From: Acidobacteriota bacterium
Lineage (GTDB): Bacteria > Acidobacteriota > Blastocatellia > RBC074
Direction of reading: 5' to 3'
DNA: 64,000 bases
Assembly (NCBI GenBank): GCA_016715865.1
Contig: JADJXM010000001.1
Coordinates: 417,572 to 481,571, forward strand
Under the pieces are notes generated by a model. It did not search any database and had not been told where the DNA came from. It saw only the letters and a program-made list of their open reading frames with translations. Each line of letters opens with the position of its first letter. The first letter of the stretch is position 1. Of this stretch, positions 50,715 to 53,700 are shown one piece after another. The position numbers and the translations under genes are program-made.

Positions 50715-53700
50715 TCAGCAGCAGTTCGGCGGAAAGATCGGGATGATCAGTTTGGCAGCGCTGCTTAAACTCAGTTTATGCAGGTTATGGGCGCCGTTAA
50801 AGGCGTTACTGCTCGAGATCACATTTGGATTGTGATTGATCGTCAATCCTAGAATCCCACCCGCTGATTCGTCGGCCGCCCAGAACTTCATCCATCCGCT
50901 GCGTCCGCTTGGAATATGAGTCTCATATCGCGGCACGGTTCGTGGGAAGGTGCTGGAGAGCGAAGACCGAAGCTGGCATGCGTTCTGACTGAAGGCGAAG
51001 CTCAACGCTGCCTCAGTATCGTTGTAGAGCAGACCTGTTATTGATCCGAGCCCGTTCAATCCGATCATTGTATTACCGCCAATCCGATCGAGGACCAGCA
51101 TTGTGTCATTCCCCTCAGCCCTGCTGGGCAGGTTGTCGGCGGAAAGAGCTCTCGGCATCCGGCTATAGCTGGAGCCGTCGAAATTAAGAGTGGCCGTCGA
51201 GGATTGATCATTACTGCTGGTCGGGTTTTGTTTCAACGCAGAAAATGCCTCGGCGCTGATGCTGCCCCTGTGACCAGAGCTGAACTTGAACTGTTCATCT
51301 CCGACCAGGCAGTTGAAGAGAACCGGGATGCCTGTTTTGCAATCGACAGCCACTGCGATCAGGTAACCCGTGATATCAGGGTCGAAATCCGAGATCACGA
51401 AACTGGTTGTCTGATTTCTGGTCAGGCAGACATATGAATCGGCGATCGTACAGGTCGCCCCGTCGACGAAGAACATGTGAACTGAAATGTCCATCGTCGG
51501 GCTGACATTTGTCATTGTAATCCGTGTATTTTGCGTGTTCGGGTTGGTCGAGCTCGAAGTATACAACGGGAAGACGAGAACCGATCCGGCTGTCTGATCA
51601 CTCCCCTCAGTCGTTGCAGGGAATGGCCGTCCAGGACCTTTGGGCGATGTGAAGGTGACGCAAGCGAAATCATCCTCGGCAGGATTCCTGTTTCCGGGCG
51701 TCGAATCGGGATCGAAAGCTTCCGATTCGAATATCTCGGCGCAATTGAATGATGCCTCGCCTCCCGCGGTGATCATTACTGTGATCGTCAGAGTCGCCTG
51801 TGTATTTGGCTGAAGGGATCCCAGGACCCACTTGCCGGAGTTCTCATCATAAGCGCCCTGACTTGCATTTGAAGTGACAAAGTTCAGGCCCGGAGCCAAC
51901 AGGTCCTCGACAACCACACCGTGCGCTATGCTCGGCCCGGTATTGCGAACAGTTATGGTGAAGATCACATTCGATCCGATCTCCGGTTGCAGGTTGTTGA
52001 CGGACTTGCTTAGGGATAGATCGGCGCATGCACTGAAAGTAATGACTACAGTGTCATTTGTAGCGCCGCATGCGCCAGGAGGATCGTTCGTCGTTAATGT
52101 CAGGGTTACAGATCCATTCAGCCGTTCGGCAGCTGTTGGTACGTACCGTGCACTGAGCGTATTAGCATTTGGTTGAAAGGTTCCTTGTCCGCCGCTCCAG
52201 ATCGCACTTGTTGCAACTCCGCCGATCGATCCGGCAAGCTGAACCGAGGTGGCGCAGGCCGATACCGTCTGATTCGCACCAGCATCCACCGAGGGTTGGT
52301 TGTCGATACTGAGAGTGGTTGACTTGGTGACCGAACCGCAATTGCCGCTGACCGTCACCTCGACGGTGTGAGCGCCGACGCTCAGGCTTGTGGTATCGAT
52401 CGAGTTGCTGTTTGTAGCGCCGGGAATCGGATTGCCGTCGAGCTTCCAGGCATAAGTGAACTGGCCGTTGCCGCCCGAAGCGGTTGTCGAGAAGTTTGCC
52501 GTCGCGCCCTGGCAGACGGTCTGCGCCGCGAGCGCAGTCGCCGCAGTGTTGGCCTGAACGGTCAGTGTCGCCGATTTTGTGACGGAACCGCAATTGCCGC
52601 TGACCGTCACCTCGACGGTGTGAGCGCCGAGGCTCAGGCTTGTGGTATCAATCGAGTTGCTGTTGGCAGCGCCGGGAATCGGATTGCCGTCGAGCTTCCA
52701 GGCATAGGTGAACTGGCCGTTGCCGCCCGAGGCGGTGGTCGAGAAGTTTGCCGTCGCACCCTGGCAGACCGTCTGCGCCGCGAGCGCAGTCGCAGCAGTG
52801 TTGGCCTGAACGGTCAGTGTCGCCGATTTAGTGACGGAACCGCAATTGCCGCTGACCGTCACCTCGACGGTGTGAGCTCCGATGCTCAGGCTTGTCGTAT
52901 CGACTGAATTGCTGTTGGCAGCGCCGGGAATCGGGTTGCCGTCAAGCTTCCAGGCATAGGTGAACTGGCCGTTGCCGCCCGAGGCAGTGGTCGAGAAGTT
53001 CGCCGTCGCGCCCTGGCAGACCGTCTGGGCTGCAAGGGCGGTCGCCGCAGTATTGGCCTGAACGGTCAGAGTCGCGGATTTGGTGACGGAACCGCAATTG
53101 CCGCTGGCCGTGACTTGGACGGTGAGAGCGCCGACGCTCAAGCCGGCCGTGGCGATGGCGTTGCTGTTGTCAGCGACGGGAATCGGGTTGCCGTCAAGCT
53201 TCCAGGCATAGGTGAACTGGCCGTTGCCACCCGAGGCAGTTGTCGAGAAGTTCGCCGTCGCTCCCTGGCAGACCGTCTGGGGGGAGAGTTCGGTCGCGGA
53301 TGTTCCGGCTTGAACCGTCAGTGACGTGGATTTGGTGACGGAACCGCAGGCTGCCGTGACCGTCACCTCGACGGTGTGAGCGCCGAGGCTCAAACCGGCG
53401 GTGGCGATCGAGTTGCTGTTGGTCGCACCCGCTATCGGACTGCCATCCAGTTCCCATGCGTAGCTGAAAGGGCCAGTGCCTGAAGCCGTGGTCGAGAAGT
53501 TCGCGGTCGCGCCCTGGCAGACCGTCTGAGGGGAGAGTTCGGTTGCGGATGTTCCCGCCTGAACGGTCAGTGTCGCTGATTTGGTGACGGAACCACAGGC
53601 TCCCGTGACCGTCACCTCGACGGTGTGAGCGCCGAGGCTCAAGCCGGCGGTGTCGATCGAGTTGCTGTTGGTCGCCCCGGGAATCGGATTGCCGTCAAGC

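Follow-up and report, generated by a model that had tools for sequence, protein, structure and literature searches.

Proteins A and B, two giant secreted proteins encoded side by side in an Acidobacteriota bacterium (Blastocatellia; assembly GCA_016715865.1), end in a shared 310-aa domain that belongs to a real, large and lineage-specific family without a description in the libraries searched. The analysis covered 64,000 nucleotides of contig JADJXM010000001.1 (positions 417,572 to 481,571), referred to as the window, and all coordinates are those of the window. The genes of A and B lie head to tail on the minus strand. The C-terminal domain, called the end domain, and the domain upstream of it were located as follows:

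50718–51647, minus strand: end domain of A (310 aa, SPKGPGRPFP...IIPIFPPNCC; stop codon 50715–50717)
58241–59170, minus strand: end domain of B (310 aa, TSKGPGLPFP...IIPVFPPNCC; stop codon 58238–58240)
51699–52022, minus strand: DUF11 (PF01345) of A (Pfam E 1.1e-28), directly upstream of the end domain
59204–59545, minus strand: DUF11 (PF01345) of B (Pfam E 2.4e-30; TIGR01451 also matches)

Extent of the End Domain and Library Searches

A tblastn search with the 310-aa query found exactly two copies of the end domain in the window, at 50718–51647 and 58241–59164, which were 65% identical. BLASTP analysis with the last ~560 aa of A showed that the C-terminal regions of A and B aligned over 559 aa at 61% identity (E = 0), which bears out the original prediction of a C-terminus shared by the two proteins. 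The motifs quoted in that prediction, FNCLVGDE.FKF.SGHRG and GRSGW.K, were also present. The DUF11-like segment proposed for each protein was identified as PF01345 in both, scoring 100.3 and 105.6 bits against a gathering cut-off of 24.6. Both proteins are members of DUF11 (PF01345/TIGR01451), and the match stops short of the last 310 aa. The domain had been put at ~350 aa; a shared unannotated domain was indeed found, and its length was corrected to ~310 aa, since the interval 50715–51900 takes in the C-terminal part of DUF11.

The end domain itself had been proposed to lie outside known families, and the searches agreed with this. No Pfam or NCBIfam model matched it at E ≤ 10, and 45 of its relatives showed no consistent Pfam or NCBIfam family at E ≤ 5. 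A profile of the family gave 0 matches among PDB sequences at E ≤ 10, and literature searches returned no paper that appears to describe the domain. Both copies fitted the ~305-aa family profile and carried the cysteines C66, C74, C224 and the terminal Cys, as well as the (V/I)FPPxC end. Against the representatives of 50%-identity clusters, the best E-values reached 1e-219.

Family Size, Distribution, and Architecture

A protein collection clustered at 90% identity contained 276 significant relatives, most of which were 320–345 aa long and consisted of a signal peptide and the end domain alone. All had names like 'hypothetical protein [Blastocatellia/Acidobacteria bacterium]'. Among representatives of 50%-identity clusters there were 1023 matches, 588 of them below 1e-30, and in nearly every case among the best 150 of the 1023 the domain formed the last ~305 residues of proteins of 340–5800 aa. 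The species-representative genomes held at least 547 confirmed loci, nearly all in Blastocatellia/Acidobacteriota metagenome-assembled genomes (MAGs).

The family appears to be confined to Blastocatellia-type Acidobacteriota. Some loci were titled 'uncultured Heliomicrobium sp.' or 'Heliobacteriaceae' (L002, L010, L013, L014, and others). An origin of these loci in Bacillota was rejected; the titles appear to be taxonomy-mapping artefacts, because the genes flanking L002 were 76–83% identical to, and syntenic with, those of Acidobacteria-labelled MAGs. A profile built from the Cys-less internal copies of the domain retrieved only unnamed acidobacterial proteins.

Several copies per genome were common. 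One 9.5-Mb MAG chromosome held at least 8 loci (among the best 80), and at 13 of 79 loci a second copy lay within 20 kb of the first, usually in the same orientation, as in the window. In the genome of the window, stand-alone copies were also found as P0104, encoded on the same 626,479-bp contig, and P0089; AB7H86_08460 and AB7H86_08465 are an example of adjacent stand-alone paralogues.

The bodies attached to the end domain were diverse. Upstream of it, 62 Pfam families were found in 54 carrier proteins, most commonly the immunoglobulin (Ig)-like or adhesin repeats DUF11, He_PIG, HYR, SdrD_B, Calx-beta, and CARDB. The same carriers also included proprotein-convertase P-domains, Kelch, FG-GAP, and LTD, and further relatives were annotated as transglutaminase-like (P0047, PF01841) and Reeler (P0298). 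The end domain was also found in carriers lacking DUF11. The domain itself was highly conserved: over 281 copies the median pairwise identity was 55%, and 70 of 306 columns, many of them polar, were at least 90% conserved. Seven carriers (P0121, P0122, P0124, P0126, P0129, P0138, and P0245) had 2–3 copies, one of them directly after the signal peptide.

Terminal Motif and Conserved Cysteines

The C-terminal tails and the cysteines discussed below were located as follows:

50718–50747, minus strand: C-terminal tail of A, IIPIFPPNCC (family-conserved Cys309 at 50721–50723; clade-specific Cys310 at 50718–50720)
58241–58270, minus strand: C-terminal tail of B, IIPVFPPNCC (read from the sequence)
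51426–51428, minus strand: Cys74 of A (YVCLT), putative partner of Cys309 (Cys co-variation, 281 copies)
50976–50978, minus strand: Cys224 of A (NACQL), putative partner of Cys66 (51450–51452)

The FPPNCC ending reported for both proteins is present, as A and B end in II P(I/V) FPPNCC. The ending of the family at large is (V/I)FPPxC-COOH with a single Cys, which was carried by all 89 of the complete genomic open reading frames (ORFs) that could be delimited. Of 147 representatives, 108 had Cys as the last residue and 141 had it within 2 residues of the end; one residue followed it in 24 and two in 9. Conservation of the terminal motif in homologues, as first put forward, thus holds for (V/I)FPPxC with one Cys; it does not extend to Cys-Cys, which was found in ~8 of ~335 sequences. 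P0123 and P0127, the probable orthologues of A and B respectively, are among the sequences ending in CC. As a separate observation, the terminal CC co-occurred with Cys113 in 7 of 8 scorable CC sequences.

Alignment of the 281 copies to the family hidden Markov model (HMM) showed six Cys-rich columns, namely 66, 74, 106, 144, 223, and 306 (terminal Cys); residues C107, C145, C224, and C309 of A correspond to columns 106, 144, 223, and 306. All six were Cys in 182 copies, and 58 copies lacked only 106 and 144. These two columns were both Cys in 208 copies, neither was Cys in 66, and one alone was Cys in 5. Five copies without C66 and C223 retained C74 and the terminal Cys, each having Cys at four of the six positions. 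In multi-copy proteins the non-terminal copies ended in ...PV(x)PP/PG with no Cys, and most of them (xx..x patterns) also lacked C66, C74, and C223; the C-terminal copy of the same protein retained C74 and the terminal Cys, with the full set in P0122. C223 was missing from 10 C-terminal copies, and Q224 was invariant.

The even Cys counts and the co-variation in exported proteins suggest cystines. From the alignment, we infer three intradomain disulfides, C66–C224, C74–C309, and, in most members, C107–C145. The pairing of 66 with 223 and of 74 with the terminal Cys is proposed because the five copies mentioned above lose 66 and 223 yet retain 74 and 306. The most likely role of the terminal Cys is to close an internal disulfide; attachment of a lipid or a sorting function at this residue is improbable. 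The idea of lipidation or thioester anchoring through the Cys-Cys pair is therefore not supported, since the terminal Cys co-varies with other Cys of the same domain, which fits an intradomain disulfide better than lipidation, a thioester, or a sortase-type signal.

Predicted Structure

An AlphaFold2 model of the full domain, built with 45 sequences, was all-beta with ~21 strands and had a mean predicted local distance difference test (pLDDT) of 92.8 and a predicted template modelling score (pTM) of 0.90. The C-half (residues 149–310) modelled alone reached a pLDDT of 89. Because this half folds on its own in the prediction, the domain may consist of two beta-sandwich lobes, of which the N-lobe would have a topology like that of ASRT/TM1070 and the C-lobe would resemble a jelly roll. 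The last ~7 residues had a pLDDT of ~91 in the full model vs. ~55 in the C-half model, a drop that is consistent with packing of the tail on the N-lobe.

Foldseek searches of the PDB with the full model gave nothing convincing over the whole domain, the best match being Spy0128 pilin (E 5.6e-4, TM 0.22). A sub-match to TM1070 (1nc7) had a probability of 1.0, with TMt 0.65, 9% identity, and a root-mean-square deviation of 4 Å. This match was assigned to the N-lobe because 1nc7 was outside the top 50 Foldseek matches of the C-half model. TM1070 has the ASRT/ASRAH eight-stranded sandwich, a topology like that of carbohydrate-binding modules (CBMs), with predicted small-molecule or sugar binding (PMC2739507). 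The C-half alone gave no PDB match below E 0.01; its weak jelly-roll-type matches were picornavirus VP1, the FedF lectin domain, and TNF, all with TM <0.4 and E >0.01. The viral structures in BFVD gave no match.

Leader Motif of End-Domain Genes

Many members of the family, small and giant, start with MRT(S/T)(H/R)(K/T)L. A relaxed regular expression for this leader matched 21 of the 101 long members and 51 of the 125 that stand alone, compared with 3 of 246 signal-peptide-like ORFs that served as controls from these loci (long carriers vs. controls, Fisher p ~1e-9). When 1.29 Mb were scanned, all 14 ORFs with the leader start carried the end domain. In its DNA form the leader reads ATG CGA ACY WCA CAC, with conserved third codon positions; it stands at the starts of end-domain genes at L038, L048, L053, L065, L072, L076, and L077, among others, and did not occur in control signal-peptide ORFs of the same loci. 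Codon 4 was ACA or TCA in 13 of the 14, whereas these two account for only 12% of the Thr and 10% of the Ser codons of the genes concerned. The string AACYWCACRC occurred 41 times in 2.59 M strand-bases, 12 times beside starts of end-domain genes. In protein A the motif was found in another reading frame:

57723–57732, minus strand: leader motif in protein A, AACCTCACAC, CA-rich, 15 nt after the ATG

Because the third codon positions are conserved and the motif of A is in a different frame, an mRNA-level element or a specialised leader is suggested. A CA-rich start region that acts at the mRNA level seems a better description than a peptide signal, and the motif links the end-domain genes whichever its level.

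Proposed Role of the End Domain and Alternative Explanations

The reading we lean towards, at somewhat less than even chances, is that the end domain may be a shared 'foot' for surface attachment or common handling, stabilised by the terminal disulfide. This functional proposal draws on architecture and conservation, and it is plausible and unproven. Disulfides formed in the periplasm would hold the domain together, and the tail FPPxC-COOH would serve as a proline-rich strap, fastened to the N-lobe by a bond between its last Cys and Cys74. The foot would then keep unlike passengers (PKD, DUF11, He_PIG, HYR, Calx-beta, Kelch, protease P-domains, and others) at the cell surface by attaching to an envelope component that does not vary, a glycan or an outer-membrane partner being the likeliest; alternatively, an export step common to all carriers might recognise the domain. 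The sites taken by the end domains of the carriers would also be taken by stand-alone paralogues.

The end domain is the one element common to all carriers, which have ordinary, cleavable-looking Sec signals and, in the inspected examples, no other recognisable anchor. A constant, cell-encoded partner is favoured because the domain stays conserved despite the varied passengers. The C-terminal position, the diverse passengers, the number of paralogues, and the high conservation make a sorting or anchoring role plausible. A bolder version, in which the end domain and the leader motif (MRT[ST]H..) would together mark the cargo of a dedicated Blastocatellia pathway for surface export or attachment, is rather doubtful. 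Such a pathway would be a functional analogue of the exosortase system or of the C-terminal domain (CTD) of the type IX secretion system (T9SS), with a new 310-aa disulfide-stapled recognition domain and machinery that is unassigned; this too is put forward with considerable doubt.

Several observations weigh against the foot. Stand-alone copies carry no cargo, and N-terminal or internal copies occur in P0121, P0122, P0124, and P0126; both are unexpected for a pure sorting signal, and the size of the domain also counts against one. No conserved gene was found beside the end-domain loci (the 79 loci, the window, and one stand-alone gene), and all-against-all clustering of 2499 ORFs from the 79 loci showed only local synteny and shadow ORFs, with no linked processing gene. 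The clade of A and B has the extra cysteines C103, C113, and C310, and because its Cys totals are odd (7 and 9), one thiol is unaccounted for. Lastly, a lectin-like module of 310 aa could equally be an adhesive head.

The last point leads to an explanation that we consider possible, if on the unlikely side, in which the end domain would be a lectin- or CBM-like head, placed on the tips of repeat stalks or secreted alone, that binds environmental polysaccharides or other cells and has no sorting or producer-attachment role. The weak resemblance of the lobes to CBM-like ASRT sandwiches, the FedF lectin domain, and jelly rolls points this way, as do the stand-alone secreted copies, the internal and N-terminal copies, and passengers that are mostly stalk-like Ig repeats; the conserved residues D87, D89, D209, E211, W251, and H287 would suit a Ca2+ or sugar site. 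However, the fold matches are weak (C-lobe TM <0.4), and adhesive heads normally diversify, whereas this domain keeps ~55% identity and 70 near-invariant columns despite unrelated bodies. Something else would also have to hold the carriers, whose Sec signals look cleavable and in which no other anchor was recognised. It is quite unlikely that the domain is a subunit that self-assembles into a surface layer or fibre, in which stand-alone copies would polymerise and the giants would join the lattice through their end domains. In favour of such a subunit are the abundant stand-alone paralogues (several per genome, some adjacent), the high conservation of the whole surface, and the position of the stand-alone gene examined, P0076, among unrelated housekeeping genes. 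The weak jelly-roll-like matches also include capsid proteins and TNF-like trimers; yet these all had TM <0.4 and E >0.01, there was no sign of oligomerisation, and the searchable literature reports no S-layer for the Blastocatellia-type group.

The terminal Cys or Cys-Cys might instead be a covalent anchor, and this we hold to be improbable. It would be lipidated, carry a thioester, or form an intermolecular disulfide, either with an envelope partner or linking protein A to protein B. In nearly all representatives (141 of 147) no more than 2 residues follow the Cys, the two CC-ending genes are adjacent, and the extra terminal Cys with the odd totals in A and B means that one thiol may be free. 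Against this, the CC ending is rare in the family (~8 of ~335), the Cys count of most members is even (4 or 6), and co-variation ties the terminal Cys to C74. The sequence has no CaaX spacing, no thioester-domain model matched, and the loss of C223 from 10 C-terminal copies left Q224 invariant; the second Cys may form another internal bridge, as the CC clade gains C103 and C113. An enzymatic function, for example a Cys/His hydrolase or ligase using C224 and H290 or similar residues, would be in keeping with the many invariant polar residues (H57, H125, H287, K120, R235, Q224, and D/E positions), but it is highly improbable: the domain had no Pfam, NCBIfam, or PDB similarity to any enzyme, its all-beta predicted fold matched no catalytic fold, and the candidate Cys vary together in the manner of disulfide pairs and can be absent from internal copies.

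Organization of the A and B Genes and Other Features of the Window

The two genes have the following organization:

58238–63616, minus strand: protein B, 1792 aa, ORF intact (NCBI MBK9312975.1, 'DUF11 domain-containing protein'); in order, a Sec-type signal peptide, an unannotated N-terminal region, PKD/Ig-like repeats, DUF11, and the end domain
55438–57747, minus strand: N-terminal ORF fragment of protein A, 769 aa, with the signal peptide, DUF11/DUF7927, and the first PKD repeats; out of frame past ~55668
50715–55691, minus strand: C-terminal ORF fragment of protein A, 1658 aa, with PKD repeats, DUF11, and the end domain
52324–56264, minus strand: PKD repeat array, the body of protein A (Tandem Repeats Finder, TRF; Pfam PKD/PKD_4)
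55655–55680, minus strand: site of a 1-nt insertion in protein A, reading CCGATCGCGGGGAGCGACC (from sister-repeat alignment)

Protein A had been described as a single ORF (50715–57747); its reading frame is in fact interrupted, and the two overlapping ORFs 55438–57747 and 50715–55691 result from a 1-nt insertion at ~55668. The junction reads GCGGGGAGC vs. GCAGGGGC in the sister repeats, giving one extra base. The extra base adjoins a G run inside the PKD repeat array, and the contig is part of a MAG. The frameshift is possibly a sequencing error, because the extra base adjoins a G run, or possibly a genuine pseudogene. The array holds 15.8 near-identical copies of 249 nt (83 aa) each at 91% identity (TRF). 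Its local GC content was 62–65% vs. ~52–55% in the surroundings.

In protein B, residues ~60–340 (62600–63430), which are the ~280 aa after the signal peptide, had no Pfam or NCBIfam match, and this region may be another unannotated domain. The N-terminal leader of P0127 was very similar to that of protein B.

The neighbours of the two genes in the window were unrelated, and included ABC-F, a histidine-kinase fragment, CHAT-TPR, amidohydrolase, and others. Four further ORFs were recorded:

11488–16698, plus strand: 1736-aa RHS-repeat protein, possibly of polymorphic toxin type; no other domain recognised
27593–31852, plus strand: 1419-aa protein with an outer-membrane beta-barrel (OMP_b-brl_4) and CarboxypepD_reg, TonB-dependent-receptor-like; no sign of a link to A or B
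41296–44448, plus strand: 1050-aa protein with TPR and CHAT (caspase-like protease) domains
44672–46741, minus strand, opposite to and after the TPR-CHAT gene: 689-aa ORF without a Pfam match

Significance and Comparison with Known Systems

Blastocatellia are abundant in soils and activated sludge, and they have many giant proteins of adhesin-like type. With more than 1000 clusters at 50% identity and no Pfam or NCBIfam entry, a profile of the end domain would list a candidate surface proteome of the class. The family also offers a testable disulfide map and a starting point for phylogenetic profiling toward partner machinery. If it proved to be merely a lectin-like head, it would still be new as a family at fold level, would have a confident model, and would merit a domain entry.

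The ending had been described as unlike the known C-terminal sorting signals, and the comparisons with LPXTG, PEP-CTERM, GlyGly-CTERM, and the T9SS CTD were all negative. For LPXTG/sortase, the last 25 aa (HNLHKLSLSSAAKLIIPIFPPNCC) had no motif, hydrophobic helix, or basic tail, and no NCBIfam match was obtained. The features of PEP-CTERM/exosortase and GlyGly-CTERM/rhombosortase were absent from the sequence, and the NCBIfam search, which includes their models, was negative at E ≤ 10. The T9SS models TIGR04183 and PF18962 had no match in A, B, or the 45 relatives, and no PorU, PorV, or SprA genes were found in the window or in the 79 flanking loci.

Other candidates were also rejected. The 12-stranded autotransporter beta-barrel translocator (PF03797) had no Pfam match, and no outer-membrane barrel was among the top 50 Foldseek matches; moreover, the end domain has 4–6 conserved Cys and ends in Cys, whereas translocators are Cys-poor with an aromatic last residue. 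A thioester at 'CQ' (TED/C3-like) was set aside, as no TED Pfam model matched and C223 co-varies with C66 as a cystine. Prenylation or lipidation (CaaX, Rab-type CC/CXC) did not suit exported bacterial proteins that end in xFPPxC and have CC in few sequences (~8 of ~335), and isopeptide bonds involving K120 had no supporting fold match.

DUF11/TIGR01451 surface proteins include A and B as true members through the upstream domain, and the last 310 aa lie outside DUF11. The ASRT/ASRAH family (DUF1362; TM1070) was the sole structural match with high Foldseek probability, assigned to the N-lobe; however, its members are small cytoplasmic tetramers, the identity was 9%, and what is shared amounts to a generic sandwich. 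The end domain does not belong to this family by sequence, as no Pfam match was obtained at E ≤ 10.

The PEP-CTERM/exosortase system and the T9SS CTD were first recognised via lineage-specific C-terminal domains common to many paralogues. Anchoring and sorting modules such as SLH, CWB2, and the T9SS CTD are constant modules common to carriers with unlike bodies. Like the end domain, the T9SS CTD of Bacteroidota is a lineage-restricted beta-sandwich at the extreme C-terminus of unrelated Sec-dependent passengers, with many paralogues per genome. It differs in being a single Ig-like sandwich of ~80–100 aa, whereas the end domain has ~310 aa, two predicted lobes, and three putative disulfides, is often stand-alone and sometimes internal, and came with no sign of machinery or cleavage. 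SLH and CWB2 (Bacillus anthracis BSL and Clostridioides difficile Cwp proteins) are similar in that a module of some 180–300 aa is present on dozens of surface paralogues with different functional regions and varies much less than the other parts of these proteins. Non-covalent binding to a constant envelope polymer is attributed to SLH and CWB2, and a comparable binding would underlie the proposed foot. They are made of alpha/beta repeats and belong to Gram-positive walls, whereas the end domain is all-beta, predicted to be disulfide-bonded, and found in a diderm, and no sequence or fold similarity between them was detected. The D-region of type IV pilins has an unrelated fold and context; nevertheless, it has a Cys near the C-terminus that is bonded back to an earlier Cys and so fixes the terminal segment, as is proposed for the end domain.

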